Shown in pieces: positions 1,960 to 64,000 of a DNA stretch of 64,000 nt. The stretch is from Candidatus Omnitrophota bacterium (GTDB taxonomy: Bacteria > Omnitrophota > Gorgyraeia > Zapsychrales > Zapsychraceae). The position numbers were made by a program, and so were the translations under genes. The notes beneath the pieces are model-generated. The model worked only from the letters and a program-made list of their open reading frames with translations. It made no database searches and had not been told where the DNA came from. Location of the stretch: NCBI GenBank assembly GCA_015233405.1, contig JADFXT010000006.1, positions 67,848-131,847 on the forward strand, written 5' to 3'. Position 1 is the stretch's first letter; each line of letters starts with the position of its first letter.

Positions 1960-3339
1960 TCAATCTTTGCGAACAAAATGCTGTACGGTAAAAGCGATCA
2001 AAATAAGATATAAAGAAATGATGGGAAAAGAATATCGTATGAGGATACTGACTTGCGAATAAAAGACAACAAACAGAAAAATGAACCACCACGACCAAAA
2101 TATGATAAAACATCTTTCATCCAGAGGTTCCCTGCCGATAATTTTTTTGATGTTCCTCCACAAATACCCCCAGACAAAGAAAATCGCGCCAAAAGTCATG
2201 AGCGCCATTATCAATCGGACGGCATTCTTAAAAATTGTAAAATTATAAAGCTTTTGGATTGGCTGCGGAAAAACAGTAAAGCCTGCCGTGGATTCCCAGA
2301 AAGCCATTTTCAAACTGTCCAACAGACCAAAAACAAAATATTGATAAGGGTTATTTAAAATAAGCTGTCTCGTGGATTGGATCAAAGTTTGATTGACTTG
2401 GGAAGAAGACAATCCCAAGCTAACCAGTCTTGCCATTTCTTCCATACCATAAACATCCGATTGAAAATTAGACCAATACCGGCATTTTTCTTCGCCGTAT
2501 AAAGATTGGCAAACCCTTTCCCCAGGAATATAAGCCAAATAACTTCGCACATCCATTTGATTTACAGGCTGCATCCGTCGGAAAATATTCCCATAAATAA
2601 CCCATGGCCCCCTATCTGTCAGGACAAAATTCCCATTCGATTTCATGTTCAGAGATTTATAAGAGAGTACCGCAGAATAAAAACAACTTGAAGCCAAGAA
2701 CATAATGGCCAGCGAAGCCAACATCTTCTGTCGATTCAGGCGCGAATGTAAAATTAGAAAGATAGCAAATGATAATATATAAATAGGGAACAGGATTTCA
2801 AAGATACCCTTAATAAAAACAGCAAAAACAAAAGAAACTCCCAATCCCAAAGCCCAGGCATAGCTTAAATAAGATTTTCTAGCATTCCAGGCAATCCAAA
2901 TCCGATAAGTACAATAAATAATCAATAAGACAAACGGATAAACTGCTATTTCCGAGAACAAACAAAAGGCCGAATTAATAATCGATGGAGAAAAACCATA
3001 ATAAATAAGGATCGCAAAGATGATTCTCTTGTCCAACTTTAGAACGAGTAAAAGCCGATAAAGCAAAAATTGTGAAACCAATAACAATAAAATCTGAAAA
3101 AATTTTTGAGGATAAGAATAATCGACGTTTAAGAATCCCCCGACTTTCATGGCCATAGATATGATCCATGGATAAAATGGCTCTCGATTCGGACCCGTTA
3201 AAAAATAGGCGTGCCAGCCCTGGGTATTCAACATTTTTCCCAAAAACTCATACCCTAGCGCATCTGTGACAATTGTCATCTGGGCAGTAAACCCCAAATA
3301 AATCCAAAATATTCCTGATAAAATAAATGCCCAGATCAT
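1960..3339 (-). CDS. polytopic membrane protein, GT-C-like (family 39/83, ArnT/PMT_2-like) glycosyltransferase candidate
   Basis: 459 aa with more than 10 hydrophobic segments by eye. The first loop, TDALGYEF...GPNREPFYPW, resembles the acidic loop-1 pattern of GT-C enzymes. No soluble catalytic domain. Confidence 0.5.
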   Translation of the reverse strand: MIWAFILSGIFWIYLGFTAQMTIVTDALGYEFLGKMLNTQGWHAYFLTGPNREPFYPWIISMAMKVGGFLNVDYSYPQKFFQILLLLVSQFLLYRLLLVLKLDKRIIFAILIYYGFSPSIINSAFCLFSEIAVYPFVLLIIYCTYRIWIAWNARKSYLSYAWALGLGVSFVFAVFIKGIFEILFPIYILSFAIFLILHSRLNRQKMLASLAIMFLASSCFYSAVLSYKSLNMKSNGNFVLTDRGPWVIYGNIFRRMQPVNQMDVRSYLAYIPGERVCQSLYGEEKCRYWSNFQSDVYGMEEMARLVSLGLSSSQVNQTLIQSTRQLILNNPYQYFVFGLLDSLKMAFWESTAGFTVFPQPIQKLYNFTIFKNAVRLIMALMTFGAIFFVWGYLWRNIKKIIGREPLDERCFIIFWSWWFIFLFVVFYSQVSILIRYSFPIISLYLILIAFTVQHFVRKD

Positions 3340-4529
3340 TGCCGGAAATCTTTCTGTTTTAATTCCATTGCCTTCCGATATATATTCATTAAAACTTGAT
3401 AATTTTTTTCTGCTGTATATTGTTCATCAAATATTTTATATGCATTTTGCCCCATTTGTCGAGCAACTTGGGGATTGCCCAAAAGACATCGAATTTTGAT
3501 CGCTAAATCTTCGACGTCGCCAGATTTAAACAACACCCCAGTCTTTCCATCTTCGACAATCTCTTTTATCGCACCAATATTACTGGCGATGACAGGAACC
3601 CCGCAAGCATAAGCCTCTATAATGACGCGGGAAAATGTTTCATAACATTCCGACGGGACAATTAAAAATGAGGCGCCTTGCATCAAACGCATTGTTTCCT
3701 CCTGCGGCTTCTGTCCTAAAAATTCTATGGGCAATCCTCGCGATAAAATCATTAAATCTTTTTTTAAAGGCCCATCGCCAATAATCTTAAGCGCTAGAGG
3801 ATTGGAAATCCCAGCCCAAGCTTTCACGAGCGTCATAACGCCTTTATAATCCCGTAAAGCCCCCACATATAAAGCATAATCCTTCCGGGTTTCTAAAGGA
3901 CGGTCGAAATTTTTATTCAAGAAATTGGGTTTTATAAAAATCTTCTCTGCCGGAAAACCGTTTTCCACAAATTTTTGTTTACAAAAAGCGCTCGGCGCAA
4001 TAAAACAACTCACCTTATTTGTGAGAATCTGTTTTTTCTGCAAGGAGTGAATAATCTTAGTCAGCAAGAAAGATTTCAAATAAGAATTCTTCCAGCATTT
4101 TTGAAGAATGGCTTGCTGAATGCCAGAAGATACGCAATGGCTGCAAATCTTTTCTCGTCGATAAAATAAGGCATTGGGGCATAAAAATCGATAATTATGA
4201 AGGGTCTGAACTATAGGAAGTTTTTCATCATAACAGGCATCGTAGACAGAAGGAGTTATGACAAAAAAGGTGTTGTGGATATGCGCAATATCTGGCTTTT
4301 CCCGTTGGATAAGACTTTTTATTTCCTGGTATACATCCTTTGACCAAAATACATCTTTGAAAAAGAAATTTATCTTCTTTAAAAATCCAAACTCTTCAAT
4401 CGTTTTATTGGATCGCAGATAACAGACAACCTGATGCCCTTGGGATTCCAACATCTTTTTTTCTGCCGCAACCACTTCATCTTCCCCGCCCTGATAATAA
4501 TAGCTATTATGGATAACAAGGATTTTCAC
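3336..4529 (-). CDS. glycosyltransferase family 4 (GT-B fold)
   Basis: 397 aa. N-lobe MKILVIHNSYYYQGGEDEVV. C-lobe PSECYETFSRVIIEAYACGVPVIASNIGAIKEIVEDGKTGVLF (E-x7-E type). Confidence 0.85.
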   Translation of the reverse strand: MKILVIHNSYYYQGGEDEVVAAEKKMLESQGHQVVCYLRSNKTIEEFGFLKKINFFFKDVFWSKDVYQEIKSLIQREKPDIAHIHNTFFVITPSVYDACYDEKLPIVQTLHNYRFLCPNALFYRREKICSHCVSSGIQQAILQKCWKNSYLKSFLLTKIIHSLQKKQILTNKVSCFIAPSAFCKQKFVENGFPAEKIFIKPNFLNKNFDRPLETRKDYALYVGALRDYKGVMTLVKAWAGISNPLALKIIGDGPLKKDLMILSRGLPIEFLGQKPQEETMRLMQGASFLIVPSECYETFSRVIIEAYACGVPVIASNIGAIKEIVEDGKTGVLFKSGDVEDLAIKIRCLLGNPQVARQMGQNAYKIFDEQYTAEKNYQVLMNIYRKAMELKQKDFRQ

Positions 4530-6373
4530 GCCGGTTTCCTCTGCTCTTTTAAATAGCCCAAGGTCATCCCGAACAATGTCCAGACCGGAATAGCTGTATA
4601 AGGAAGCTCAAAAATCAATAAAAAATTAGCCGCGACAAACCAACTTATCAAGATTCCGCACAAAAGAATTCCTGTCACAGATTTTAAGGCAATAAATCCT
4701 CTAATCATAAACCACAAAAGTCCTAACAAACTCAGGATAAAACAAAACCCAATAATTCCAGATCGATAAATGATACTTAAGAATGAATTATGCGAGGCGA
4801 TCCATCCGTCCCTTTGCCACTCGCCTTCGCCCCAATCTAAAATTTCCAGACTGATAGATCGAAAAGGCTTGCCGAAATCAAACCCAAAAAATTTCTTCTG
4901 CCCTGTTAATTCGGCAATCATATCTCGCCATATAAAAAGACGGAAAACAGTATTAATATGCGCCCCCTCGACATTTCTACCTACGAATGATTGGGGTGGG
5001 CCATCTGATTTCTTCATAATGTTTGGCCAAAAGTTCTTGCCCGAATTGACCAAAGGGCTATTAGAATCTTTTATTCTTAAAGTCTCAAGTTTTATCACTG
5101 ATTTTTGAAAAACAGATTCTTCCACAATTTCAACAGCTTTAACTGCTGGCTCCTCTTGGCTCATTACAGGCGAAGAAGTGGCAATTTGATTCAATATGGG
5201 TTTTTCAGATGCAGTATTAATCCCCGTCGAGTTTGTCAATGTTGCCGCTGGAGTTGGAGATGATTGCACTACGGATACATCAAGAACTTTAGCAGGCGAA
5301 GAAGTGCCAAGCTGTTTTAAGGTTAAATTTTCCGATTCTGGATTAACCACAGTATTTGTTATCGATACAATTTCAGGACCAGCTACGGACTTCTCCTGGA
5401 CTGAAGCTTTCTTTTCTTCGAGCGCTTTGACAGAAAGTGCTTCCGATGCTTTTATATTTGAGGATGATATGGATTTCTTTGATTTTTCCAACTGCGTAAA
5501 ATCTTCTATAAGATCATTTTCAGGATTATACAATGCAACATTTTCTAACTTTTTCGGGACAAAAGCTGGCTTTCTTTTCTCTATTTCCGTTTGGTATTCC
5601 TTAAACACGGCCGCAATCCGTTTGATTTGAAAGATGCTATTAAAAGCATTCACAAAAGAGTACCGTATCATGATGAATAAAAACAACGAGAAAATAGAAA
5701 CAAACAATAAAATTTTGTAAGGGCAACGAAATGGAGAAATAATCGTCATCGCGATTATTAGAAAACAAAAGCCAATAAAAAACCCAAAAACATACGTTCT
5801 CGCTTCAGCGATAAAAGCATGATAAGGAAGCGTTAATAGTAAAAGGCCCAAAAAGAAATATCTCTCCCTCTTATTCGGAAGAGATTTTATAAGAATACCG
5901 GTGAGAGCCGCCATTGTTAATACCCATGAAAAATCAAAAAATCTAGCTAGAAAAAGGGCACAAAAAAGAAAAATAATGCACTTTCTGATCTCTTCCGTAA
6001 ATAATTCCTTACGATAAAAAACAACTCCAAATAGAATAAAAATCGGATAATAAAAAAGCGCCGCATGCCGAAAGGCCAATGGACCCCAATGATGATAACC
6101 ATAAAAAGCCTTTGAGAGGACAAACACAGCATAGCCGATAACCAGCCACCATTGCCGATTTGTTAATTGTTTGAAATCAATCGATAGAAAAAATAATGGA
6201 AGGCATAAAAATAAAAGAATTTCACCGACAAACACAGGGAAATTCAAAAATGAAAAGCTCAAATGCATTTCTGCAAACACTCTTGGGAATAGAACATAAA
6301 ATAAACTAAATATGCCGATCAAACCGAGGCCGGTATATCTTAAAGTGTTTTTATAATCTTTTCTTTCGCGCAT
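4526..6373 (-). CDS. Wzy_C-domain membrane protein (O-antigen polymerase / ligase / PglL-type O-oligosaccharyltransferase family) with a large low-complexity insert
   Basis: 615 aa with at least 10 TM segments. RLFIWRDMI...GFDFGKPF...WIASHNSFLSIIYRSGIIGF matches the R-x3-W ... H-N-x-[FY]-L loop of Wzy_C proteins. Residues ~255-465 are S/T/P/E/V/K-rich. Confidence 0.6.
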   Translation of the reverse strand: MRERKDYKNTLRYTGLGLIGIFSLFYVLFPRVFAEMHLSFSFLNFPVFVGEILLFLCLPLFFLSIDFKQLTNRQWWLVIGYAVFVLSKAFYGYHHWGPLAFRHAALFYYPIFILFGVVFYRKELFTEEIRKCIIFLFCALFLARFFDFSWVLTMAALTGILIKSLPNKRERYFFLGLLLLTLPYHAFIAEARTYVFGFFIGFCFLIIAMTIISPFRCPYKILLFVSIFSLFLFIMIRYSFVNAFNSIFQIKRIAAVFKEYQTEIEKRKPAFVPKKLENVALYNPENDLIEDFTQLEKSKKSISSSNIKASEALSVKALEEKKASVQEKSVAGPEIVSITNTVVNPESENLTLKQLGTSSPAKVLDVSVVQSSPTPAATLTNSTGINTASEKPILNQIATSSPVMSQEEPAVKAVEIVEESVFQKSVIKLETLRIKDSNSPLVNSGKNFWPNIMKKSDGPPQSFVGRNVEGAHINTVFRLFIWRDMIAELTGQKKFFGFDFGKPFRSISLEILDWGEGEWQRDGWIASHNSFLSIIYRSGIIGFCFILSLLGLLWFMIRGFIALKSVTGILLCGILISWFVAANFLLIFELPYTAIPVWTLFGMTLGYLKEQRKPA

Positions 6374-8531: not shown

Positions 8532-8560
8532 CTCCTTATGGACCGGGCAATGCTAGCTCT

Positions 8561-9505
8561 TTAAGCTTTAGTGATTTTCTTATATGTCGTCGATGTCATC
8601 TTGACACGTTCTTCTATATTAAACTTCGAATTATAAATCATCACATCCGATTTGTCCGCATTACGCTGGTCACAGTTCTCACAAATCAACCCACTGCCTT
8701 TAAACTTGCCTTGCTCATGGCATTCGACCAGCTTTTTATATAACGGAGAAGAAAATATTTCTTTAAGACTCTGCGTCTTTAAATCTCCTATGGTCAACTT
8801 GCCGTCATAATCAAAGCAGCACATATTGACCGTTCCGTCGACCTGAATCTGTAACGGGCCGTTAAAAGGCCGCCCGCATGTGATCAGTTTTTTTCTTTGA
8901 ATGCTGCGGAAATGCCCAGCATCGACCCAATTATGCGGCCGCCAGACTTCGAGCAAATCAACCTTCCCTTCCCACTCTTTAATCCAATCCTTGACGACTT
9001 TATCATTAGCGCCGTGAACCACGTTATAAGTTAATATGAGCTGCGTGGTCTTTTTATTTCTTGCAATTTCCATAAGGTTGTCTTTAACTCTCGAGAAAAT
9101 ATTCTTATTCTCCAATCCATGCACCTTGGTATACGTCTGGGGTGTCGTTCCATACAAACTTACCCGAATAGGTGAAACACCTAAGTCCTCCAATTCTTTA
9201 AATATCTTAGGCGTTAATAACGAGCCGTTCGTTAAAATAAGGACGTCGAGTTGTGGCTTCTTTTTCTTAGCATATCTAATTTTATTCAATAACGTTTTGT
9301 CTAATAATGGCTCGCCCATGCCCGGGAACGTCAACGTCGTATATTGGGATGTTTCCTTCTGGATCTTGTCAAAAATCGTCTTAAACAATTCCAGCGACAT
9401 AATTTCTTTTGTGCGGGTCAATTGGTTGGGATGCGGACAAATAATACAGCGATAATTACACTTCGTCGAGACTTCAATACGCATATCATTGTTCTTGGGA
9501 ATCAT
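8561..9505 (-). CDS. radical SAM enzyme with SPASM/twitch-like C-terminal auxiliary-cluster region
   Basis: 314 aa. CX3CX2C triad CNYRCIIC near the N-terminus and PGMGEPLLD. Cys-rich tail: CGRPF...VDGTVNMCCFDYDG..IGDL..QSLKEIF...CENC. Confidence 0.8.
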   Translation of the reverse strand: MIPKNNDMRIEVSTKCNYRCIICPHPNQLTRTKEIMSLELFKTIFDKIQKETSQYTTLTFPGMGEPLLDKTLLNKIRYAKKKKPQLDVLILTNGSLLTPKIFKELEDLGVSPIRVSLYGTTPQTYTKVHGLENKNIFSRVKDNLMEIARNKKTTQLILTYNVVHGANDKVVKDWIKEWEGKVDLLEVWRPHNWVDAGHFRSIQRKKLITCGRPFNGPLQIQVDGTVNMCCFDYDGKLTIGDLKTQSLKEIFSSPLYKKLVECHEQGKFKGSGLICENCDQRNADKSDVMIYNSKFNIEERVKMTSTTYKKITKA

Positions 9506-9540
9506 GAATAAATAACCCTTTCTAAGATTTGAATCCGATC

Positions 9541-11034
9541 TTAATTATATTTCTCCAAACAAATCTGTCTAAGTTCATTAAAAATCCTGTTGCCCTCTTC
9601 ATCAAACGTCTCCGCCCTTTTAATTTTGGGCCAATATTCTCTCGGCAATTTCACATAAAGAACAAAAACCCTGCGAATGCCTTGGATATCCTGACGGGTT
9701 AAAAAAGGCTTCGGCATATCCATCGGCACGGCAGTATTTAAGGAGCCCAAGATCAAGTCGTCAGCAATATATCCTTTTTCCAGGCAGACCTTATGCAAAG
9801 GAGAACCGTGAAAAGGTGCAAAGACCGCACAGTTCACCGAATCCGCCGTGATCTGCCGGTTGAGCTCTATCGTATCAAAAACTAGATCCCTTGTTTCGCC
9901 GGGAAAGCCGATGATATTATTGACCGTTAACGGCACGCCCACTTCTGCGATGATCTGGGAAGCTTTGATCATCGTCGCATTATCAAATGTTTTCTTTAAA
10001 ACTTTGGTGCGGAATTCCGCATTGCCATGCTCGAGCCCCATGGACATCCGATGGCAACCGACATCCTTTAATTTTTGAATGCGCTCTTTAGTTACCGTCT
10101 CGGGCCGAGTTTGCATCCAAAAGGGCAATTTGATTTCTTTATAAAAATCAATAAACTCATCAAATTCCGCCTGCGGACCGACAAGAAAATTATCCGACGA
10201 AAAATAAATGTATTCTGCTTTCCACGCCTTTACCAACTCGCGGATTTCCCGTTTGATGGTCTCGATGTTCTTGATCCTGAAAAACGTTTGCCCATGCGAT
10301 TTATATAATTTTGCCATAGACGGTGAGTTACAAAACGCGCATTGAAAAGGGCAGCCTCTATTTGTCTCGACGGGAATTGTCTGATAGACCGTACCGGCCA
10401 TCGGACGAAAGAACCGCTCGGGCTCAAACAAACTATAATCCGGGACTGGCAAAGAATTGATATCCACCAGCGGCCTGACCGGATTACAAATGATCTGCCC
10501 ATCTTTCTTAAAGCACAAATTTTTTATCTGCGAACAATCTTTGCCAGCGGCCATGTTCTCACAAAATTCTACAACCGTTTCTTCTCCTTCGCCCACGCAG
10601 ACAAAATCCACAGCCTCGTGCGCCAAAACTTTTTCCGGAGCGAATGTCGGAAATACCCCTCCGGCCATGACCGGAATATCAAAATCCTTGACGACATTTA
10701 AAAGTTCCAATCCCCTTTGATAAGTGCACTCAAGCATGGAAATCAGAATCAAATCCGGTGTGAATTCCTGAATTTTCTTTCTTAGGTCATCTTCCGGCAT
10801 TGTTTCTTTAGGCTTAACCCCGCGGGTACCATAATCGAACGGTTTGACCTGTAGATTTTCCTTCTTCGCGTCGTCGGAACCTTTCATGCCCTTCTCGGGA
10901 TAGAGCGTCGTATCAAATAATGCCAACTCGAACCCTTTTGGCTTTAAAAGGGCGGTAAAAATACCGATAGAGATGGCCGGCGGATTCATGAGTAATCCGT
11001 TCGGATAAAGAAAAAGGATTTTATATTTAGACAT
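9541..11034 (-). CDS. B12-binding-domain radical SAM enzyme (class B, methyltransferase-type)
   Basis: 497 aa. N-terminal B12-binding-like Rossmann (KILFLYPN...DLILISMLE). Radical SAM triad CPFQCAFC. RBS AAGGAG (11050..11045) lies 10 nt upstream of the ATG. Confidence 0.85.
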   Translation of the reverse strand: MSKYKILFLYPNGLLMNPPAISIGIFTALLKPKGFELALFDTTLYPEKGMKGSDDAKKENLQVKPFDYGTRGVKPKETMPEDDLRKKIQEFTPDLILISMLECTYQRGLELLNVVKDFDIPVMAGGVFPTFAPEKVLAHEAVDFVCVGEGEETVVEFCENMAAGKDCSQIKNLCFKKDGQIICNPVRPLVDINSLPVPDYSLFEPERFFRPMAGTVYQTIPVETNRGCPFQCAFCNSPSMAKLYKSHGQTFFRIKNIETIKREIRELVKAWKAEYIYFSSDNFLVGPQAEFDEFIDFYKEIKLPFWMQTRPETVTKERIQKLKDVGCHRMSMGLEHGNAEFRTKVLKKTFDNATMIKASQIIAEVGVPLTVNNIIGFPGETRDLVFDTIELNRQITADSVNCAVFAPFHGSPLHKVCLEKGYIADDLILGSLNTAVPMDMPKPFLTRQDIQGIRRVFVLYVKLPREYWPKIKRAETFDEEGNRIFNELRQICLEKYN

Positions 11035-11072
11035 ATTCGTTAATCTCCTTCAAGCTGGCATATCATTTCTAA

Positions 11073-11107: not shown

Positions 11108-11177
11108 CTCTTCTAGATTATTCCTCGCGAACATCCCCGTAGCAGGGCGATTTCGCCTTCTTTAATTTTTTTTGCAT

Positions 11178-13043
11178 TCATCCACAGGCTTGCCTATGGT
11201 TTTCCCTGCCTGCCGGCAGGCAGGTGCAGAGGTGGATAAATTTATTAAGACTGTCTTCCGTAATTTTATAAACATATTTCTCTAAATACAGGGCCGCTCT
11301 TTCTCTTTGAGAAGCGAACTTCTTGTCGTCGAGACTATCAATTTCCTCCAGTGTCTTCTTCAAAGAGTCCCCATAAGTAACCGTCCATTTTAGGTCATGG
11401 CAATTAAACAGCGTATCAAAACTTAAAATAAAACCATTATTAAAATGAATGACCGGCCGCCCCATCTTTAAGGCTTCCATAGCGACCGCCGTTCCCCAAT
11501 AGATAACCACATTGGCCTCCGTGATGTCTTCTATTAAGGATTTATTATGAGATATCGTAATATTGGGCTTTAAATATAGTTCAGGAGATATCCGTTTCTT
11601 AAGATACTCCCACGGCAACAATGGATGTGTTCGAATATTAATTTTATAACGCTCGTCACCTTTCAGCTCCCGAAGGACATAATCCGCCATCAGCTGAACA
11701 TCTTTGATCCCTTCCAAGGCCAATAAAATATTTCCGTCGCGTTTGCGGGGGAGAGCTGTTTTAGAAAACACATTTTCGAATCTCAGCCCACAGGCAGGGA
11801 TAATCTTGTCCTCAGGATAAGAACCATAATGCCTCATCATCTCTTTGCTTTCCAGTCCTAACGTCAATATTTTATCCGGCAAAGGGACCGCGGCATATTC
11901 TTTCGCGCCAAGAAACAAATTGATGGCGGCCGGCGGGATCACCGTATGCTGATAACTGAAAATTTGCGTCGTCGGCGAATATTTTCTTAAGGCCAAGATC
12001 GTCATTTTCTCCCACGGATTATTTTCATAAACCATTACGATTTTTTTTACTCGCACCTTTTGGGCAAGTCGTTTCATGGCCGAATAACAAAGGAATTGAT
12101 ACGGCTGAATTTTATGGCCGGTTTGTCGCAATTCATTCTTGACGATTTCTGAAGCCTCATATCCGCAGAAAGAAATCTCCTTTCGGACTTTCACTCTGAA
12201 AAACAGTGGAATAAACGAATCTCTCCAAGCGTCCCACCAGGACACGAAATATTCCAGTGGAATGATAAGGTCCGTAGATATTTTTCGGATCTCTTGCATA
12301 GCGCGCCGATAATTTCCCAACACATTGACCAGGATCAAAAGGTTTTCCTTACCACGAACATGCGCCGTCAACTTTCCAAAGAAGGCGTCTTGATAAACCC
12401 CTGTGGTTTTAAAAGAACTATCATAGGTGAAACTTTTAATCACATAATACGGCTCATGGGTTAGCCTTGCCGCTATCCTTTTCTGAAGAAAAACACGGGC
12501 ACAAAGAATTCTTCCCGTCACAAGAAGAACGGTCCAGAGCGCATTGACGATCCTCTTAATATAGCTGGCAAGAAAAGCCTTGCCCTTTAAATAAAATCCC
12601 TTAAACCGTATGCCGTAGTCATTTCCCTTGATAAGACCAGCAAGATGATTGGACAAAAATGGCGACGCTCCGATAATGAATAAAAAATCATAATCCTTCC
12701 GCTTAATAGCGTTCATGCATTTTAAGAAACTTTCTAACGCGCTCGGCAATCTGGAGGTATAACGGTTCTTGGACGAGATATCCGTGGCCCACCACAACAA
12801 GCCCTTGTTATCCAAGGATAGCTCCGCGATCAAATCATTATAGGCGCTTATAAATTCCTCGCTGGACAATCCGGACAAAGGATCCTTGACGGCAAACACG
12901 TTCTGCGCAGATAAAAATGATTCAACATCCTCATTGATAGGCTCAAAGGAAAGATATTTACAATTCAGCCCTTTTTCCTTAAGGATTTTCGCAATCTGCG
13001 GTTTGATTATATGGCTATTGGGAATAAAAATAATTTGGGACAT
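11178..13043 (-). CDS. uncharacterised surface-carbohydrate biosynthesis protein, putative GT-B/TagF/capsule-type transferase
   Basis: 621 aa with no motif I can name with certainty. The C-terminal third (ILLALEG...NIRTHPLLP...VVIYWGTAVAMEALKMGRPVIHF) resembles the C-lobe of GT-B transferases. Confidence 0.35.
   Translation of the reverse strand: MSQIIFIPNSHIIKPQIAKILKEKGLNCKYLSFEPINEDVESFLSAQNVFAVKDPLSGLSSEEFISAYNDLIAELSLDNKGLLWWATDISSKNRYTSRLPSALESFLKCMNAIKRKDYDFLFIIGASPFLSNHLAGLIKGNDYGIRFKGFYLKGKAFLASYIKRIVNALWTVLLVTGRILCARVFLQKRIAARLTHEPYYVIKSFTYDSSFKTTGVYQDAFFGKLTAHVRGKENLLILVNVLGNYRRAMQEIRKISTDLIIPLEYFVSWWDAWRDSFIPLFFRVKVRKEISFCGYEASEIVKNELRQTGHKIQPYQFLCYSAMKRLAQKVRVKKIVMVYENNPWEKMTILALRKYSPTTQIFSYQHTVIPPAAINLFLGAKEYAAVPLPDKILTLGLESKEMMRHYGSYPEDKIIPACGLRFENVFSKTALPRKRDGNILLALEGIKDVQLMADYVLRELKGDERYKINIRTHPLLPWEYLKKRISPELYLKPNITISHNKSLIEDITEANVVIYWGTAVAMEALKMGRPVIHFNNGFILSFDTLFNCHDLKWTVTYGDSLKKTLEEIDSLDDKKFASQRERAALYLEKYVYKITEDSLNKFIHLCTCLPAGRENHRQACG
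11180..11237. repeat. GC-rich palindromic element overlapping the 3' end of the 621-aa CDS
   Basis: Perfect 20-nt palindrome cctgcctgccggcaggcagg (11205..11224). It is flanked by an outer inverted repeat, atccac (11180..11185) / gtggat (11232..11237). The element encodes the last ~19 codons (IHLCTCLPAGRENHRQACG) of the ORF 11178..13043. Confidence 0.6.
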
Positions 13044-13058
13044 AATAAAAATTTTTAA

Positions 13059-14960
13059 TTAAGAACTTGTAAGTAGTTTACGAAATCTTTCTATTGCTTT
13101 TCCGTCTCGAAAAGGATCCATCAAGGGAGAATTCAAGGGAAAAGGATTCTGCCAGAGCCCCGACCTAACTTCTTCAACCTTCTTTTTAAGTTCCTCATAA
13201 CTATGGGTCACAACACCTGGTGTTTGGCTGTAGATCATCTCTTTATACAACCCTTGTGGGTCGTGCCACACCGCCGGCTTATTAAAACTTAGCGCTTCAA
13301 AAGTTGTGGACGTAAAAGGAAAAGAAATGATCATGTCGGCAAAATTAATAACTTCTGTTGCATCAGAAAAGTTAAGAAATATTTTTATTCGCGGGTGGTC
13401 TGACATTTTCTGATATAAACGCAGCAAATCGCCCCCTCCACCAGGGTCAAAAAGAGAAAGGAACTCTCTACCTTTTTTCTCTTTCAGAAACAAAAAAATG
13501 CGCGAATCGCTTTCCACTAACCTTAAGAGATGTTCAGCAAACATTGTTCCTTCACTATAATTAACCAGACCATTTAAAGAATAGGTTGTGTCAAATGCCC
13601 CGATCACAAAATGCTGTTCATCCTTGTTCATGCCATCTAAACATTGCACGGTTTCATATTGACTCCACAAACATCCGACAATATGCGTTTCTTTTAAATG
13701 ATGCGGGTGGGAGCAAAAAAAATCACGGACAAACTCATTCCACGTCACAAAATGATCATAAAATAAATATGTCCAAAAAGGATGCCGCATCAAACACGAT
13801 TTACTCTCCGTACGAAAATTGCATCCCATGTTAATTGAATCTGTAAAATACCAAGTTTCTATTCCCGCCTGTTTTAACGCACAATTCCTGGCAATGTGAT
13901 GAAAACCAAAATCGCAATGAGTAACAAAATGTTTTATCTCAATTTTCTCCAAGGCATTTTTCCATCTAAAATAAACAAATAAAATCGCCATGGCATGTTG
14001 GAATTCGCCCTTATTTTGTTCGATGTAGTTCTTCCAAAAAATATTCAGCAATCGCCACCAAACGTGAAAATGGCAGAACAACTGTCCTGGTCTAGGAAGA
14101 TAAACCATATGAAATGGCTGTTGAGCTAATTTTATTCTTTGCGCTTTGCTGAATTGAGAAGATGAAAAGCAAACAACATCTTTCACCTGGATAGACTTTC
14201 CATCAGCAAAAAAAGCAGGGCCGCGTTTATTATCCTCTAACTGCCGAGAGCTGATTAAGGCAACACCAAAACGATAAGATTTTTTAGCGGAAACTTTTGG
14301 AAAAAACAATCCTAAAAATAGGCTAGCTAACGTTTGCAATAGAAGCAGAACGCTGGTCCCTATAATTTTCCCCATATTTTTTCTAAAATCTTGATGATAA
14401 CTCTCTTTGGAAAATTCTAGATTGTCATGATGGAAAAAATCCTGCCGACTCAAAAGTAGCAACTCGCGAATTTCATTATAATCCGCGATATTAACTTCCG
14501 GATAAAATATAATTGGATCGAAATTCAAATATTTAGAAACTCGCTCGACAACAATGTTCTGCGCGTAAAACTCTCCCAATCTTTCACATAAAAGCTTCTT
14601 AAAAGCATTTTCCGCTTCCCGATCTTTTAAAACATCACAAACAAAATCAATCAACAGCTTATGCTTCCGATAATATGCTGGATAAACAGCCTCCACAACT
14701 TCAACCGCTTTGTCCATGGCTATGCCATGAATCGTTTTACTTTCTATATCCTTAGTAGAAATAAAGAGTATCTTGCCTTCTTGAACAAGCTGATCAATAT
14801 GTGAAGGCAGAGAAGAAGGAAATTCTGCAATTTTTCCACCTTTTTTATGATGACAAGCAAAAGGCTCCATAGCATAAACAAGTGAAGCATCCTTCAGATA
14901 AGCCTCTACTGTTTTCTCATTTAGCTTAAAAAACGATTCTAAAACAATTTTCCGACTCAT
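13059..14960 (-). CDS. uncharacterised polysaccharide-biosynthesis protein with C-terminal PFTS motif (putative GT-B-like transferase)
   Basis: 633 aa with one central hydrophobic stretch (IIGTSVLLLLQTLASLFLGLFF). The C-terminus reads ...DHPRIKIFL...ADMIISFPFTSTTFEALSFNKPAV. I recall an NCBI family named for this PFTS motif, but that needs HMM confirmation. Confidence 0.45.
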   Translation of the reverse strand: MSRKIVLESFFKLNEKTVEAYLKDASLVYAMEPFACHHKKGGKIAEFPSSLPSHIDQLVQEGKILFISTKDIESKTIHGIAMDKAVEVVEAVYPAYYRKHKLLIDFVCDVLKDREAENAFKKLLCERLGEFYAQNIVVERVSKYLNFDPIIFYPEVNIADYNEIRELLLLSRQDFFHHDNLEFSKESYHQDFRKNMGKIIGTSVLLLLQTLASLFLGLFFPKVSAKKSYRFGVALISSRQLEDNKRGPAFFADGKSIQVKDVVCFSSSQFSKAQRIKLAQQPFHMVYLPRPGQLFCHFHVWWRLLNIFWKNYIEQNKGEFQHAMAILFVYFRWKNALEKIEIKHFVTHCDFGFHHIARNCALKQAGIETWYFTDSINMGCNFRTESKSCLMRHPFWTYLFYDHFVTWNEFVRDFFCSHPHHLKETHIVGCLWSQYETVQCLDGMNKDEQHFVIGAFDTTYSLNGLVNYSEGTMFAEHLLRLVESDSRIFLFLKEKKGREFLSLFDPGGGGDLLRLYQKMSDHPRIKIFLNFSDATEVINFADMIISFPFTSTTFEALSFNKPAVWHDPQGLYKEMIYSQTPGVVTHSYEELKKKVEEVRSGLWQNPFPLNSPLMDPFRDGKAIERFRKLLTSS

Positions 14961-15059
14961 ATCAGTAATAATCCATACTCTTTGTAATTCTTTATATCCT
15001 CGTTAATATCTAACGTTATCGAATCGACAGAAAAAATATAAAAAATATTCCGTATCATT

Positions 15060-16247
15060 TTATAATTCATCTATTAATGGGATTTGAGGTGATACGACCG
15101 GAAACATGATATTCAGGATTTCTTTATTCAAGAAATCTTTAAGGGCAAGGATTTGTTCTGCCGAAACAACTCCAAATATCATTTTCTGCCAATCATGGAC
15201 AGAAAGAAATCCTGCTTCTTTCTGTTGTTCGCCTGGTCTCAACAAGACCTTTAATTTCTCTCGTGCAAAAGAAAAATGAACATCACCTACTTCGAGCTCA
15301 AAATCTTTGACTAAAGATCTCTTTAACCTCAATTCCAAGACGGGCCCAATCAAACCCAAAAAATCAATCAAAGAAGTGATCCGGACGATATGTCCTCCAT
15401 TCCAAACATGCCGTGTTGAAATTTTATGCGGCATCTCACGCAAATAAAAACAAAGCGGGTGGCACAACCCCAGCTCAAAATGGACATCTCCGCTAGACGC
15501 TAAAGGCCCCGGATGAGTAGAATGAAATAAGGAAAGAAGCTCCATAGCATAAGCATCTTTAAAACCAAATTCGTAAATCACGTTATCTTTTTTAAAGACA
15601 TAACCCACAACATCATCATCGTTTTCAAAAACATAGGAAGACAGATTCATGCGCTGAGCGTTTTTAAGATAATAATTCCAAAGTGTCTCGCTTCGATTCA
15701 GAGCCCCAAGTACATTTTGATAGGTCAACTCAAACAATTCCTGCACTCGAGGGATATGGTGAGATTCCAAGAGGTTGATGTGGGTATCTGATTCATCTCG
15801 AGGAAAAACAGCCGTATCTACCGTTAACTGGCCAAAATTTGTAAATCCGGTGAATCCGTAAGGATACCAATAACCGTCAACTTTTTTACGCGAGATTCCA
15901 ATACACAATGCCGCATTTTTATCAATATAGTCAAACATCCTTTCTTTCAAGGCGGTGGCCACAGAAAAATCCCGAATCTTCGGATGAACGGCAATCATGG
16001 ACAATCCCGCAAGCTTTAAAGGGACGCCAAAATAGTTAAATTCCCGGTCCACTAAACCAAGGACTCCGACAATTTCTTTCCCCTGTTCTTTCGCAATAAT
16101 AAATTGCAAGCCCGGCCTGTAATTCAGAACAAAATCAAATAAAGCTCGGCCATCAGAATAATTCATGCCGAAACTCCTGGATAAGAAATCTAACACAGAC
16201 TCCCGATCCGAAGGACTCAATTGCGGATAAACTTTACATTCAAACAC
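15060..16247 (-). CDS. GNAT-family N-acyltransferase with C-terminal extension (Eis-like GNAT + SCP2-like layout)
   Basis: 395 aa. GNAT core VGVLGLVDREF...LAGLSMIAVHPKIRDFSVATALKERMFDYI, followed by ~200 extra residues. Assignment is by eye only. Confidence 0.45.
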   Translation of the reverse strand: MFECKVYPQLSPSDRESVLDFLSRSFGMNYSDGRALFDFVLNYRPGLQFIIAKEQGKEIVGVLGLVDREFNYFGVPLKLAGLSMIAVHPKIRDFSVATALKERMFDYIDKNAALCIGISRKKVDGYWYPYGFTGFTNFGQLTVDTAVFPRDESDTHINLLESHHIPRVQELFELTYQNVLGALNRSETLWNYYLKNAQRMNLSSYVFENDDDVVGYVFKKDNVIYEFGFKDAYAMELLSLFHSTHPGPLASSGDVHFELGLCHPLCFYLREMPHKISTRHVWNGGHIVRITSLIDFLGLIGPVLELRLKRSLVKDFELEVGDVHFSFAREKLKVLLRPGEQQKEAGFLSVHDWQKMIFGVVSAEQILALKDFLNKEILNIMFPVVSPQIPLIDEL

Positions 16248-16931
16248 TTAGACTCCTCCATCAATTGAAATAGCAGATCCGTTCACATAATCAGATTTAA
16301 TCAAGAACTCAATGGCGTTGACAATATTCGAAACATCGCCGAAAGTTTTCGTAGGGATTTGATTTAAAATCTCTTTCTTTTGCTGTTCATTAAGTTTATT
16401 AAGCATCCCTTTTTCAAAATATCCCAGCGTTATGACATTTGAAGTAATATTGAATCGGCCGTATTCTTTCGCTAAAACGCGAGACATTCCTAACAATCCT
16501 GATTTGCTCGCCGAATAAGCGATTGTTCCCGGAGAACCTTGAATCGCGCCCAACGAAGAAACGTGAACAATCCTCCCCCATCGAGCCTCAATCATTTGCG
16601 GAAGCAAAGCCTGAGACAAAAGAAAATCCCCTTTAAGATTCACGCCTAACACATGGTCCCAATCAGTCTCGTTATAATTCGCCGCTATCCCATCGATTTT
16701 TACCCCGGCAAAATGCAAAAGAACGAGCTTAGACAATTTATCTTTCCATCGCTGGACAAATGATTGAATAGCAAGCGGATCCTCTAAATTTAACTGTTCA
16801 AGAATCAAATTCTTATGAGACGGGAACTCCGGTAAAGTTTTATTATAAATCCCCACCACCATATCCATTTCAAGCAAAGGCATTACCAATTCTCTACCAA
16901 TCCCACCTGACACGCCCGTCATAATAATCAT
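16248..16931 (-). CDS. short-chain dehydrogenase/reductase, 3-oxoacyl-ACP reductase (FabG)-like
   Basis: The ORF track extends to 17033. I start the gene at ATG 16931 (MIIMTGVSGGIGRELV Rossmann), which gives an ATGA overlap with the upstream stop. Catalytic SSLGA...YSASKSG (S, YxxxK). Confidence 0.8.
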   Translation of the reverse strand: MIIMTGVSGGIGRELVMPLLEMDMVVGIYNKTLPEFPSHKNLILEQLNLEDPLAIQSFVQRWKDKLSKLVLLHFAGVKIDGIAANYNETDWDHVLGVNLKGDFLLSQALLPQMIEARWGRIVHVSSLGAIQGSPGTIAYSASKSGLLGMSRVLAKEYGRFNITSNVITLGYFEKGMLNKLNEQQKKEILNQIPTKTFGDVSNIVNAIEFLIKSDYVNGSAISIDGGV

Positions 16932-17905
16932 AAATTCCCCTCCCATTTTAGAATACACCCACCCCAAGAATATCCGACGCCAAAACCAAGAAGTAAAATT
17001 TGATTGCCTTTTTTCAAACGTTTTTCCTCCCAAGCGTCTTTAAGAGCAATTGGTAACGAGGCAGACACCGTATTGCCAATACGCTGATAATTCGTGTACA
17101 CTTTGCGTTCATCGATTTCCATTCGTCGGACAATATTATCGATCACCAATTTGCTGGCCTGATGGAAAATAAACAAATCAATATCTTGTAGTGTCTTTCC
17201 GCTTTTTTTAAGTAAACTCTCCACACATTGCGGCACAGTTCCCATAGTAAACATAAAGACCTTCGCGCCGTTCATGAGTAGTGCCGGTGGATGTTGTTCC
17301 ACCACGTCCTTTCGCGTTCCGCTATTTTTTACAATCAAATCACAATATCCTGAGCCGTCTGTTCCCATCTCAAAAGGTCCCAACCAATCCTTATCGCTAA
17401 AAGTTAAAACAGTCGCTGCCGCTCCATCACTAAAAACCGGACGACAAGTGCGATCTGCGCTATCAATATACTTTGTATATGTTTCGCTACAAATGACAAG
17501 TCCCTGCTTGACGAGTCCGGCTTCAATCAAAGACCCTCCCATGGCAAGCCCATAAACATAACCGGAACAGCCTAGATTAACATCGAAAGCCATGCATGAT
17601 TTCTTAAGGCCCAATCGGTCTTGCAAAATGCACGCAGAAGTAGGGAGAACATAATCCGGAGACTGCGTAATAAAAATAAGAAATTCTATGTCCTCTTTCT
17701 TAATCCCCGAGGAAAAAAGTTTTTCGGCAGCCAAAACTCCCATATCCACAGCGGTTTCCTGAGGACCCGAAATATAGCGCGTACTAATACCGGTCTTCTG
17801 CTCAATCTCATCAATACGCCAATCCGGATTATCCTTCTTAAGCGCCTGACCGTTTTCACAAAGACGAGGAAGGTAATATTCAATCGCCTGAATTCTAGCT
17901 TTCAT
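16928..17905 (-). CDS. 3-oxoacyl-ACP synthase III (KAS III / FabH-like)
   Basis: 325 aa. The catalytic triad contexts are present: AFDVNLGCSGYVYGL (Cys), IFHQAS (His), IGNTVSASLP (Asn). Confidence 0.85.
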   Translation of the reverse strand: MKARIQAIEYYLPRLCENGQALKKDNPDWRIDEIEQKTGISTRYISGPQETAVDMGVLAAEKLFSSGIKKEDIEFLIFITQSPDYVLPTSACILQDRLGLKKSCMAFDVNLGCSGYVYGLAMGGSLIEAGLVKQGLVICSETYTKYIDSADRTCRPVFSDGAAATVLTFSDKDWLGPFEMGTDGSGYCDLIVKNSGTRKDVVEQHPPALLMNGAKVFMFTMGTVPQCVESLLKKSGKTLQDIDLFIFHQASKLVIDNIVRRMEIDERKVYTNYQRIGNTVSASLPIALKDAWEEKRLKKGNQILLLGFGVGYSWGGCILKWEGNL

Positions 17906-31940: not shown

Positions 31941-31942
31941 GA

Positions 31943-34950: not shown

Positions 34951-34952
34951 AT

Positions 34953-62538: not shown

Positions 62539-62553
62539 AAAATCAATCCCGAA

Positions 62554-63747: not shown

Positions 63748-64000
63748 TTGTTATTTCCCCATTTTCCGATATAAATTTTCCTTAAATTTTCTTCGCTGTC
63801 CGTTAACGGACGATTCGAAACGCCCCAGGCCTTTTCACATTCATCTCTATATCGAGCCAGCTCGGCAAAATCCTCCGGTAACGTCGACATCTTTTGGTCC
63901 GGCCCGGGCAGGTTCCGGTCGATCGTAAAATGTTTCTCTACATAACAGGCCCCTAACACAACCGCCATTTTTGCCAATTCGACACCTAAACTGTGGTCGG
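63744..64000 (-). CDS. NeuB-family nonulosonic acid synthase (copy 3), N-terminus off window; C-terminus lacks a SAF domain
   Basis: My own translation across the window edge gives ...DHSLGVELAKMAVVLGACYVEKHFTIDRNLPGPDQKMS.... The 'M' that opens the ORF-track entry is an internal TTG (Leu). The protein ends ...SEENLRKIYIGKWGNNK*, about 60 aa short of copies 1 and 2. Confidence 0.8.
   Translation of the reverse strand, partial: DHSLGVELAKMAVVLGACYVEKHFTIDRNLPGPDQKMSTLPEDFAELARYRDECEKAWGVSNRPLTDSEENLRKIYIGKWGNNK

Follow-up and report, generated by a model that had tools for sequence, protein, structure and literature searches.

Genes of the locus

The two open reading frames analyzed here lie 15 nt apart in a 64,000-nucleotide stretch of DNA (the window) and belong to a giant operon for surface sugars in an uncultured Omnitrophica bacterium. 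Both protein sequences exactly match entries from a Ca. Omnitrophica MAG in GenBank, where ORF-621 is annotated as "hypothetical" and ORF-633 as "PFTS motif protein" (TIGR04417/PF27878). Their lengths are exactly those given in a preliminary description of the DNA, and the peptides quoted there are present. ORF-633, called uncharacterized there, does belong to a named family: it scores 120 bits against TIGR04417 (curated cutoff, 100); the match covers only residues 309–596, on positions 226–522 of the 522-position model. TIGR04417/PF27878 supplies a name only: in the literature searched, no function or paper was found for it, neither the ORF-621 nor the PFTS family is named, and no biochemical or genetic work was found.

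11178..13043, reverse strand: ORF-621, 621 aa, unnamed family, distant kin of TIGR04326, TIGR04396, and BFO_1060; GT-B fold with N-terminal extension of ~195 aa; candidate CMP-ulosonic-acid transferase
13059..14960, reverse strand: ORF-633, 633 aa, PFTS-motif protein; GT-B fold with N-terminal extension of ~230 aa; candidate transferase for a Pse-type NulO
15060..16247, reverse strand: Acetyltransf_9 (GNAT) protein, encoded just upstream of ORF-633

The locus had been said to make up to three CMP-NulOs, in agreement with the three NeuB-type synthases found by profile scans and the three CTP_transf_3 cytidylyltransferases. The window also contains two NeuC genes, PseC, LegC, and a PseG-like gene. 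It holds no KdsA-like or HpcH-aldolase cassettes, and no TagD/TarI-type CDP-alditol genes, KpsM, KpsT, KpsE, or KpsD were seen in the window scans.

27890..34950, reverse strand: Pse-like NulO cassette a, six genes, of a type that travels with PFTS genes in other genomes
27890..28834, reverse strand: cassette a, PseG-like
28825..29874, reverse strand: cassette a, NeuB/PseI-like synthase
29871..30629, reverse strand: cassette a, CTP_transf_3
30630..31952, reverse strand: cassette a, class-III aminotransferase
31943..32803, reverse strand: cassette a, aldo/keto reductase
32800..34950, reverse strand: cassette a, RmlD-like–PseC fusion
34953..35684: CTP_transf_3 cytidylyltransferase
39374..40711, reverse strand: BFO_1060-like paralogue a, 445 aa; contains K304-L-H-P and S-Y-Y-S-T and adjoins NeuC
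50202..51230, reverse strand: NeuB synthase b, scoring above the TIGR03569 cutoff; belongs to a LegC-containing cassette
56860..58194, reverse strand: BFO_1060-like paralogue b, 444 aa; contains K306-Y-H-P and has the Leg-like cassette on one side and the ABC flippase on the other
58204..60000, reverse strand: MsbA/PglK-type ABC transporter
61819..64000, reverse strand: cassette c, with CTP_transf_3 (61819..62538), NeuC (62554..63747), and the 3' end of the third NeuB (63780..63998, a fragment cut by the window end)

The preliminary description saw no recognizable GT38, GT42, GT52, GT80, or Maf-type protein and argued that these sugars must have another transferase. None of these was among the best 25 families listed by an NCBIfam search with concatenated ORFs, in which weak matches may be hidden, but the locus does hold two recognizable BFO_1060/TagF-type relatives of NulO transferases. 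The argument is weakened because these two paralogues, which had not been flagged, lie in the same operon. Paralogue b exceeds the Pfam Glyphos_transf cutoff (22.7 versus 22.1 bits), and both are NulO-transferase candidates equally good as ORF-621 and ORF-633.

Fold and family relationships

The AlphaFold models of the two proteins (pLDDT 89.5 and 90.5; pTM ~0.9) are GT-B folds preceded by an N-terminal region of ~200 residues, with hydrophobic helices at residues 168–186 (ORF-621) and 202–220 (ORF-633). In Foldseek searches, both models matched GT-B proteins with E-values down to 1e-8 (146 and 351 matches at E ≤ 1e-3). The earlier impression of GT-B C-lobes is thus confirmed by both models and hundreds of matches, and no confident assignment to a non-transferase fold emerged. 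The best matches were generic GT-B enzymes, including UDP-GlcNAc 2-epimerases, and no sialyl-, Kdo-, or TagF-type transferase was among the best 50 for either model. A PDB sequence search returned no match for either protein.

At the sequence level, the ORF-621 and PFTS families are remotely related: hhalign aligned them over 504 columns (E = 7e-5), pairing PFTS with YWG(S/T) and KEKK with RTHP. The BFO_1060 model (NF046086) was matched by 32 of 43 ORF-621-family members (best 5.8e-10) and 33 of 49 PFTS-family members (best 2.8e-10), always within the C-lobes (model positions about 146–337) and with scores far below the cutoff of 200 bits. BFO_1060 proteins are the Pse/Leg-derivative transferases of Tannerella forsythia, as proven by knockout and complementation (PMC5420450), and by profile comparison both families are distant homologues of these validated enzymes. 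All 43 ORF-621-family members also matched TIGR04326 over the GT-B core (best 2.4e-22), and 39 of 43 matched TIGR04396. Since the TIGR04326 scores are 33–71 bits against a cutoff of 250, the ORF-621 family is a sister family of TIGR04326 and not a member.

Conserved motifs and candidate donor-site residues

The following motifs, all on the reverse strand, were located in the two proteins.

12762..12794: W84-W85-A-T-D-I-S91-S-K-N-R94 of ORF-621, in the N-terminal extension, near-invariant
12009..12026: E340-N-N-P343-W-E345 of ORF-621, in the N-lobe, with E340, P343, and E345 invariant; candidate catalytic or acceptor-side acidic residues, aligned with T-H-C-D-F-G of ORF-633 (13905..13922)
11622..11633: R471-T-H473-P474 of ORF-621, at the end of strand 467–471, the second strand of the C-lobe
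11475..11501: Y515-W-G-T-A-V-A-M-E523 of ORF-621, counterpart of F-P-F-T-S-T-T-F-E in ORF-633
13467..13484: K493-E494-K495-K496-x-R498 of ORF-633, at the end of strand 488–493; K493 and K495 in 49/49 sequences
13383..13400: D-H522-P523-R-I-K of ORF-633, just before strand 525–528; conserved, not invariant
13308..13319: P548-F549-T550-S551 of ORF-633, at the N-terminus of helix 551–558, after strand 543–546
13296..13298: E555 of ORF-633, invariant

The literal PFTS motif noted earlier in ORF-633 is not a chance occurrence, because it is present, as is E555, in all 49 homologues; the loop from PFTS to E555 is predicted to bind the phosphate and ribose in the GT-B C-lobe. The R-x-H-P of ORF-621 (invariant, 43/43) fits the (K/R)XHP signature, the cytosine-binding motif of the sialyltransferases of GT29/38/42/52/80 and of the GT99/107 Kdo transferases (PMC12887879). 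An H-P dipeptide at the sialyltransferase HP position had been claimed for both proteins; this is correct for ORF-621 but not for ORF-633, in which KEKK takes the place of R-x-H-P both topologically and in the profile alignment. The H522-P523 of ORF-633 (43/49 and 39/49 sequences) lies one strand–helix unit later, and its aligned counterpart in BFO-like paralogue a is the second "KHPK", not (K/R)XHP. Because ORF-633 lacks that motif, its use of a CMP donor is less certain.

Gene neighborhoods in other genomes

Across phyla, a common gene order is kept: a Pse-like NeuB cassette, GNAT, PFTS, a Wzx or ABC flippase, the ORF-621 homologue, and a second cassette with its own cytidylyltransferase. 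NeuB was found in 11 of 13 well-flanked PFTS loci (a PseG-like gene in 8 of 13) and CTP_transf_3 in 19 of 21 well-flanked ORF-621 loci, 20 of which had at least one of NeuB, HpcH, and CTP_transf_3. Co-occurrence with NulO genes, a check proposed in the preliminary description, is therefore positive, and the homologues do not occur mostly in loci lacking such genes. GNAT lies directly upstream of the PFTS gene in 14/33 cases, and directly downstream lies Wzx (14/38) or an ORF-621 homologue (7/38). NeuB was present in 10 of 12 loci with PFTS versus 3 of 12 with an ORF-621 homologue but no PFTS (Fisher p = 0.012), indicating that the ORF-621 family is tied to NeuB for the most part indirectly. 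The usual partners of this family are the cassettes that directly follow it, of a KdsA-like (KdsC-like/KdsA-like/CBS/CTP_transf_3) or HpcH-aldolase type (GFO/MTase/SIS/TAL_FSA/HpcH/HAD/SDR/CTP_transf_3).

Several neighbors in the window recur elsewhere. The GNAT family of 15060..16247 (cluster c46) adjoins the PFTS gene in loci L003, L007, and L021 (on the downstream side in L021), and in L017 clusters c47 and c38 likewise lie beside PFTS. The MsbA/PglK-type transporter family replaces Wzx directly after PFTS or before ORF-621 homologues in L015, L022, and L057. The window arrangement of ORF-621, B12-radical SAM, rSAM/SPASM, FkbM, and GT2 recurs in L048 and L068, where no cytidylyltransferase lies within 10 kb.

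Comparison with known systems

The nearest characterized relatives, Tanf_01245 and TFUB4_00887 of T. forsythia, transfer Pse5Am7Gra and a Leg derivative, respectively (BFO_1060 family; PMC5420450). They share with both ORF families the C-lobe homology, which recurs at about positions 200–320 of the model, the GT-B/TagB-type fold, and the proximity to CMP-NulO biosynthesis genes; of the two ORFs, only ORF-621 shares the HP motif with them. In contrast, the Tannerella enzymes (~445 aa) lack the conserved ~200-aa N-terminal extension, ORF-633 has K-E-K-K instead of the first HP motif, and the true BFO-like members of the window are the two 445-aa paralogues. With TIGR04417/PF27878, the "polysaccharide biosynthesis PFTS motif protein" family, ORF-633 shares the invariant PFTS and a polysaccharide locus, but in its clade (~640 aa) the N-terminal half is longer or of another type. 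The "surface carbohydrate biosynthesis proteins" of TIGR04326 (a 602-position model of similar length; LIC13510 family) and TIGR04396 share the GT-B core with the ORF-621 family, which scores below their cutoffs; both are themselves uncharacterized.

The GT-B sialyltransferases (GT38, GT52, and GT80) and retaining Kdo/Pse transferases (GT99, GT107, GT118 KpsS1, and GT140 KrkA) likewise have two Rossmann domains, genes coupled to CTP_transf_3-type CMP-sugar synthetases, and, as in ORF-621, (K/R)XHP in the nucleotide-binding lobe. However, apart from weak matches of 3/43 ORF-621 homologues to Pfam Capsule_synth (KpsC/KpsS family), no significant sequence or HMM match connects them with our proteins, in which the D/E-D/E-G motif was not recognized. 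TagF has a GT-B-like, cytidine-nucleotide-binding core and an N-terminal region that associates with the membrane. The two proteins resemble such TagF/TagB CDP-glycerol glycerophosphotransferases in core and N-terminal region, but neither matches Glyphos_transf.

Proposed function and alternatives

Here, we propose as the best explanation, and consider fairly probable, that ORF-621 and ORF-633 are non-processive CMP-ulosonic-acid glycosyltransferases, anciently diverged paralogues that act before flippase export. The fold, the kinship, the invariant motifs, and the gene order are observed; donor, acceptor, stereochemistry, residue roles, and membrane association are inferred. Each protein, a GT-B fold after the extension with its one strongly hydrophobic helix, would most likely work at the cytoplasmic membrane face and attach a single 3-deoxy-2-ulosonic acid, supplied in CMP-activated form, to a lipid-linked oligosaccharide for later export by a flippase (the ABC transporter in the window, Wzx in other genomes). 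ORF-633 may transfer the pseudaminic-acid-like sugar of the NeuB cassette that PFTS genes follow elsewhere. ORF-621 may transfer a second CMP-activated acid sugar, elsewhere a Kdo-like or HpcH-aldolase-cassette product and in the window, where those cassettes are lacking, probably one of the other NulOs. In its putative donor site, R471 would touch the cytosine, P474 stack on it, and H473 touch the phosphate, while the W-G-T loop and E523 would hold the phosphate and ribose. In ORF-633, K493 and K495 would stand in place of R and H. Against the proposal count the two other NulO-transferase candidates of the window, with its three NulO pathways, as well as the generic Foldseek matches, the BFO_1060 scores below the cutoff, and the L048 and L068 loci. 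Caution is also advised by SpsB of B. subtilis: despite its TagB domain, its HP motifs, and its location beside the CMP-Leg genes, it is dispensable for Leg transfer (PMC7439481).

Both proteins might instead be ordinary GT-B enzymes that use UDP-, GDP-, or dTDP-sugars to build the acceptor oligosaccharide, leaving the NulOs to the two BFO_1060/TagF-like paralogues and perhaps others. This is rather unlikely. It agrees with the best Foldseek matches, which are NDP-sugar enzymes of GT1, GT4, GT28, and GT20, with a group of Lys/Arg residues, potentially diphosphate-binding, where ORF-633 lacks (K/R)XHP, with the location of each BFO-like candidate beside NulO genes, and with the L048 and L068 homologues. 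Against it stand the invariant R-x-H-P of the ORF-621 family, the recurrent sub-threshold BFO_1060 homology of both families, and the 85–90% co-occurrence with NeuB and CTP_transf_3. Moreover, none of the 105 related loci has a BFO-like gene, yet they still make CMP-sugars, and in L010, L018, and L083 no other candidate for the two sugars was seen among the annotated clusters (some clusters are unannotated, and c28 is GT2).

The preliminary description had allowed for NulO transferases or polymerases. Its transferase half is supported by the fold, the BFO_1060 homology, and the co-occurrence; processive polymerases, making poly-NulO or poly-ulosonate (as polysialyltransferase or KpsC) or TagF-like phosphodiester polymers from CDP-activated donors, are improbable. 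The large size of both proteins, the TagF-like extension, the Glyphos_transf score of BFO-like b, the weak Capsule_synth matches, and the tandem paralogues common in capsule polymerase loci would suit a polymerase. However, in many loci the gene right next to them encodes a flippase of the Wzx or PglK type, which suggests that a short lipid-linked unit is assembled, not a finished polymer exported by KpsMT, and neither the Kps and TagD/TarI-type genes in the window scans nor a Glyphos_transf match in the two proteins was found. Least probable are GT-B-fold nucleotide-sugar 2-epimerases or hydrolases (NeuC/PseG type) of the NulO pathway: UDP-GlcNAc 2-epimerases top the ORF-633 Foldseek matches (E = 8e-9), NeuC is among those of ORF-621, and one ORF-621 homologue weakly matches the PseG model, but true transferases reach almost the same E-values, the families do not match the Epimerase_2, NeuC, or WecB models, the window already has two NeuC genes and a PseG-like gene, most PFTS cassettes elsewhere also include a PseG-like gene, and ours lie at cassette boundaries beside flippases, not inside pathways.

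Because the glycosyltransferase fold, the distant kinship with the Tannerella Pse/Leg transferases, and the adjoining CMP-sugar cassettes coincide, ORF-621 and ORF-633 most likely attach CMP-activated acidic sugars to a cell-surface glycan.

Genomic organization of the ORF-633 and ORF-621 genes

The window is taken from a Candidatus Omnitrophica MAG, in which it belongs to a contig of 141 kb. The two genes lie where the preliminary description had placed them, and the encoded sequences match the GenBank proteins exactly.

13059..14960, minus strand: ORF-633 ("polysaccharide biosynthesis PFTS motif protein" in GenBank)
11178..13043, minus strand: ORF-621 ("hypothetical protein" in GenBank)

The spacing between them is 15 nt. 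Apart from one spurious antisense ORF, every ORF of at least 150 aa in the window is on the minus strand, and these ORFs form one very long glycan-biosynthesis operon. In a scan of positions 8000–18500, promoter-like and terminator-like sites were not in excess over shuffled sequences, and ORF-633 and ORF-621 are therefore probably co-transcribed. A 154-aa plus-strand ORF (34492..34956), antisense within the PseC fusion gene, is probably spurious.

A perfect 20-nt GC-rich palindrome (CCTGCCTGCCGGCAGGCAGG, 11205..11224) overlaps the final codons of ORF-621, and a second hairpin (11144..11159) is located inside the 143-nt gap preceding a B12-radical-SAM gene. These elements may constitute an attenuator or a repeat element. 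The C-terminal tail of ORF-621 (residues 611–621) has pLDDT values below 50 and reaches beyond the usual C-terminus of the family. The genes just downstream (8561..11034, minus strand) encode a B12-binding radical-SAM protein and an rSAM/SPASM protein, which are 52–64% identical to the products of same-position genes in unrelated metagenomic loci (L048, L028, L037, L040, and L068); the identity of ORF-621 in this comparison is about 38%, far below these values. Such conservation of the two radical-SAM genes suggests that a step of sugar C-methylation or modification is tightly linked. With the TTG start as listed, a FabG-like ORF (16248..17033) overlaps a FabH-like gene (16928..17905) by 106 nt; translation probably begins instead at the internal Met before "MIIMTGVSGG". 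Three large and very hydrophobic proteins (1960..3339, 4526..6373, and 46698..48287, minus strand) had no Pfam match and, by position, are probably polymerase-, ligase-, or GT-C-type membrane proteins.

NCBIfam and Pfam scans of the window identified three NeuB-type synthases (one cut at the window end), three cytidylyltransferases of the CMP-sugar synthetase type (CTP_transf_3), two NeuC genes, an RmlD-like–PseC fusion, LegC, and a PseG-like gene. WbuX/Y/Z amidotransferase genes, many acyl-, amino-, and methyltransferases, radical-SAM enzymes, GT2, GT4, and GT26 transferases, and an MsbA/PglK-type ABC transporter are also present. The incomplete synthase belongs to the third nonulosonic acid (NulO) cassette.

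63780..63998, minus strand: 3′ end of NeuB, with NeuC (62554..63747) and CTP_transf_3 (61819..62538)

The fusion (32800..34950, minus strand) is a 716-aa protein composed of an RmlD-like reductase domain and PseC (502 bits, above the cutoff). Two loci containing PFTS homologues (L010 and L018) also have fusions of this size, as DegT genes of 702–710 aa.

Fold and family assignment

The AlphaFold models of both proteins matched many GT-B structures in Foldseek (probability 1.00, E = 1e-8). An alternating strand/helix pattern is seen in the models at residues 231–427 and 451–566 of ORF-633 and at residues 198–416 and 438–555 of ORF-621. As predicted by these models, both proteins are members of the GT-B superfamily, with two Rossmann-like β/α/β domains, of which the C-terminal one holds the nucleotide in this fold. 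Their structural neighbors are generic GT-B proteins, epimerases included.

ORF-633 scored 120 bits against NCBIfam TIGR04417 (curated cutoff, 100), which was also matched by all 49 aligned PFTS homologues, and PF27878 was precomputed for 118 of 120 among the ORF-633 homologues listed. The P-F-T-S motif near the C-terminus, a feature of TIGR04417/PF27878, is present in ORF-633 and in 49/49 sequences. ORF-621 scored 50.1 bits against TIGR04326 (the LIC13510 family), below the curated cutoff of 250. This model was matched by 43/43 members of the ORF-621 family (best E = 2.4e-22), and ORF-621 is best described from its sequence as a homologue, not a member, of TIGR04326. Another model, TIGR04396, was matched by 39 of the 43, with ORF-621 itself below the threshold. 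The profile of the ORF-621 family retrieved 7,502 representatives (50% identity) at E ≤ 1e-3 and 4,814 at E ≤ 1e-10, so it defines a large family without a name. Almost without exception, the hosts found are uncultured MAGs (Omnitrophota, Thermodesulfobacteriota, Chloroflexota, Planctomycetota, Elusimicrobiota, and SAR324). A local Pfam copy, which lacks PF27878, gave no significant domain in either protein, and PDB-sequence profile searches gave nothing useful for either family. In the literature searched, "PFTS motif", TIGR04417, TIGR04326, TIGR04396, LIC13510, and PF27878 appeared in no paper.

Unannotated genes encoding 600–730 aa adjoin ORF-621 homologues in several loci (L107, 4536–8454; L058, 1366–3432, cluster c23 with 13 loci; L033, L048, and L068). 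Among the clusters of such genes, 52, 118, and 202 match the PFTS profile (1e-12 to 1e-16), and c23, c50, c61, and c86 match neither family profile and have no Pfam domain.

Homology to BFO_1060 and a putative nucleotide-binding signature

Profile–profile comparison aligned 504 columns of the PFTS and ORF-621 families (E = 7e-5, probability 63%). The F-P-F-T-S-T-T-F-E stretch of the PFTS family was paired with Y-W-G-S/T-x-V-x-L-E of the ORF-621 family, and L-K-E-K-K-x-R with I-R-T-H-P. Both families also matched BFO_1060 (NF046086), the family of Tannerella Tanf_01245 and TFUB4_00887 (PMC5420450). These proteins have a TagB/GT-B domain and an HP motif, and knockout, complementation, and glycan MS showed that they are needed to add a Pse (pseudaminic acid) or Leg (legionaminic acid) derivative to the Tannerella O-glycan (PMC5420450). 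BFO_1060 was matched by 32 of 43 ORF-621-family members (best E = 5.8e-10) and 33 of 49 PFTS members (best E = 2.8e-10), with the matches falling in the C-lobes at about positions 146–337 of the 365-position model. Against the curated cutoff of 200 bits, ORF-621 scored 13.8 bits and ORF-633 had no match at E ≤ 1; the best members of the two families scored about 40 bits, also below the threshold.

Two paralogues in the window that resemble BFO_1060 had been overlooked as candidates in the preliminary description.

39374..40711, minus strand: BFO-like a, 445 aa, K-L-H-P, BFO_1060 43.6 bits (sub-threshold)
56860..58194, minus strand: BFO-like b, 444 aa, K-Y-H-P, BFO_1060 38.8 bits (sub-threshold), Pfam Glyphos_transf 22.7 bits (gathering cutoff 22.1)

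They are 44% identical to each other and are at least as good NulO-transferase candidates as ORF-621 and ORF-633, giving four transferase candidates for three NulOs in the locus. Both are near-orphan sequences: BFO-like a, searched against 5.8 billion proteins, retrieved no sequence but itself, and BFO-like genes were found in 0/105 related loci. PDB-sequence profile searches gave nothing useful for BFO-like b. In hhalign, each family profile against BFO-like a alone gave a nonsignificant probability of 3–5%, with the motifs lined up; in this nonsignificant alignment to a single sequence, R-T-H-P of ORF-621 is opposite K-L-H-P.

In a 2026 structural study, the (K/R)XHP signature is described as common to the sialyltransferases of GT29, GT38, GT42, GT52, and GT80 and the Kdo transferases of GT99 and GT107, in which the basic residue forms a bond with the cytosine, against which the proline packs (PMC12887879). 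At the position of the HP motif in the conserved C-terminal domain of BFO_1060, ORF-621 has R-T-H-P, whereas ORF-633 has K-E-K-K and lacks the cytosine-binding motif. Arg471, His473, and Pro474 of ORF-621 are invariant in 43 family sequences, as are Glu340, Pro343, Glu345, and, in the N-terminal extension, Trp84, Trp85, and Ser91; Tyr515, Trp516, Glu523, and Ala524 are conserved in 42/43. At the sequence level, the invariant R-x-H-P fits the (K/R)XHP signature. In the PFTS family, Pro548, Phe549, Thr550, Ser551, Glu555, Lys493, Lys495, Asp374, Arg358, and Asp567 are invariant in 49 sequences, and His522 and Pro523 of ORF-633 are found in 43 and 39 of them, respectively. Of the H-P dipeptides noted earlier in both proteins as a possible sialyltransferase motif, that of ORF-621 holds up, but that of ORF-633 pairs with a nonequivalent second "KHPK" of the BFO-like protein.

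Gene neighborhoods in other genomes

The ORFs of 25 genomic loci (PFTS family) and 80 metagenomic loci (ORF-621 family), with flanks of up to 10 kb, were clustered, and the recurrent clusters were annotated. The order [NulO cassette + GNAT]–PFTS–(Wzx or ABC flippase)–ORF-621 homologue–[second cassette] recurs across phyla. The first cassette comprises NAD-epimerase, DegT/PseC, class-III aminotransferase, aldo/keto reductase, CTP_transf_3, PseG-like, NeuB, and GNAT genes. Three forms of the second cassette were seen.

Form 1: GFO/IDH/MocA, methyltransferase, SIS_2, TAL/FSA aldolase, HpcH/HpaI pyruvate aldolase, HAD phosphatase, two SDRs, CTP_transf_3, and 2-hydroxyacid dehydrogenase; directly after ORF-621 homologues in L106 (11859–19992), L107 (11850–20082), L030, L054, L033, L036, and L003
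Form 2: Hydrolase_3 (KdsC-like HAD), DAHP_synth_1 (KdsA-like), CBS-pair protein, CTP_transf_3 (KdsB-like), and GT2; just after the ORF-621 homologue in L010, L018, L083, L005, and L069
Form 3 (as in the window): radical-SAM enzymes, FkbM methyltransferase, and GT2

Judged by its genes, form 1 resembles a pathway that would yield a CMP-activated 3-deoxy-ulosonic acid with no need for NeuB or KdsA, and we know of no description of such an SIS/TAL-FSA/HpcH/HAD/SDR/CTP_transf_3 route. Form 2 is, by its predicted functions, a Kdo-type pathway embedded in a NulO locus. In the compact loci L010, L018, and L083, no other candidate for the transfer of the two sugars was seen among the annotated gene clusters. 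The FemAB-like, DegT-like, and Acetyltransf_9 genes flanking the PFTS gene in the window recur beside PFTS in L003, L007, L017, and L021.

Counts were restricted to loci in which the anchor has 8 kb or more of flanking sequence on each side. The supposed co-occurrence with NulO genes was borne out: NeuB is present in 11 of 13 PFTS-anchored loci (CTP_transf_3 in 9), and CTP_transf_3 in 19 of 21 ORF-621-anchored loci (NeuB in 11), 20 of which have at least one of NeuB, HpcH, or CTP_transf_3. NeuB tracks PFTS, being found in 10/12 PFTS-containing loci versus 3/12 ORF-621-only loci (Fisher p = 0.012). The mean number of CTP_transf_3 genes per locus is 2.0 with both families and 1.33 and 0.75 with one (n = 4, 12, and 8), a trend of one transferase per cytidylyltransferase in numbers too small to carry weight.

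Proposed function

Here, we propose with moderate confidence, from sequences and models, that ORF-621 and ORF-633 are most likely nonprocessive glycosyltransferases that use CMP-activated 3-deoxy-2-ulosonic acids and act on an acceptor linked to lipid; the confidence is somewhat higher for ORF-621. Four lines of evidence agree in this: the GT-B fold, the relationship of both families to NulO transferases that have been validated, the CMP-type motif of ORF-621, and the placement of each gene, beside a flippase and at the boundary of a cassette ending in a CMP-sugar synthetase. For a CMP-activated ulosonic acid as donor, the counts of CTP_transf_3 (19/21 ORF-621 loci) and NeuB (11/13 PFTS loci) give indirect support. 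The two proteins would make a plausible variant on an enzyme type already known, rather than an unprecedented system. The interpretation in the preliminary description is thus borne out in part and sharpened. No significant sequence or structure similarity of either protein to the CMP-dependent sialyl- or Kdo-transferases of GT38, GT52, GT80, GT99, and GT107 was found, and ORF-633 is without (K/R)XHP. The earlier statement that the locus has no GT38, GT42, GT52, GT80, or Maf protein agrees with the best 25 families of the NCBIfam scans of concatenated ORFs. The TagF/TagB model Glyphos_transf (PF04464) matched neither protein nor the 43 ORF-621 homologues. B. subtilis SpsB is a cautionary example, since its TagB domain, HP motifs, and adjacency proved misleading (PMC7439481). 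For ORF-633, the Pse-like cassette (27890..34950) would be the best match. KdsA-like and HpcH cassettes, the usual partners of the ORF-621 family, were looked for in the window and not found, and the donor of ORF-621 there may be one of the other NulOs.

A processive polymerase, the other function first suggested for these GT-B proteins, is ranked low because of the flippase adjacency. An epimerase or hydrolase, to which the epimerases among the structural neighbors might point, is also ranked low, since the Epimerase_2, TIGR00236, and TIGR03568 HMMs matched neither the two proteins nor their homologues (the genuine NeuC genes of the window score 403–456 bits), leaving a likeness in fold only, and these functions are already encoded in the locus.

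Returning to the CMP-ulosonate transferases, a broader scheme can be put forward tentatively, and we consider it rather less probable than not. The PFTS and ORF-621 families would be two new families in the CAZy sense, forming a conserved PFTS–(flippase)–ORF-621 pair that puts two different acidic sugars on one lipid-linked glycan. PFTS proteins would bind CMP via K-x-K-K and P-F-T-S...E instead of the widespread (K/R)XHP, and in many genomes the ORF-621 family would work with a so far undescribed, NeuB- and KdsA-independent pyruvate-aldolase route (SIS, TAL/FSA, HpcH/HpaI, HAD, SDR, and CTP_transf_3) whose product is a CMP-activated 3-deoxy-ulosonic acid.

Known pathways to nonulosonic acids are numerous, but known enzymes for attaching these sugars are few. 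Little is known about NulO transferases according to PMC5420450, and in B. subtilis the Leg transferase has yet to be identified (PMC7439481). The present result predicts a function in uncultured bacteria; it does not establish a new principle. If the prediction is true, two large "dark" families would gain a function open to testing, and the number of transferase families would grow by two, one of them with a changed nucleotide-binding signature; enzymologists would also have candidate catalysts for the synthesis of Pse-, Leg-, or Kdo-type glycoconjugates. As a conserved module, the two cassettes also point toward a so far unexplored acidic sugar, formed by a pyruvate aldolase.
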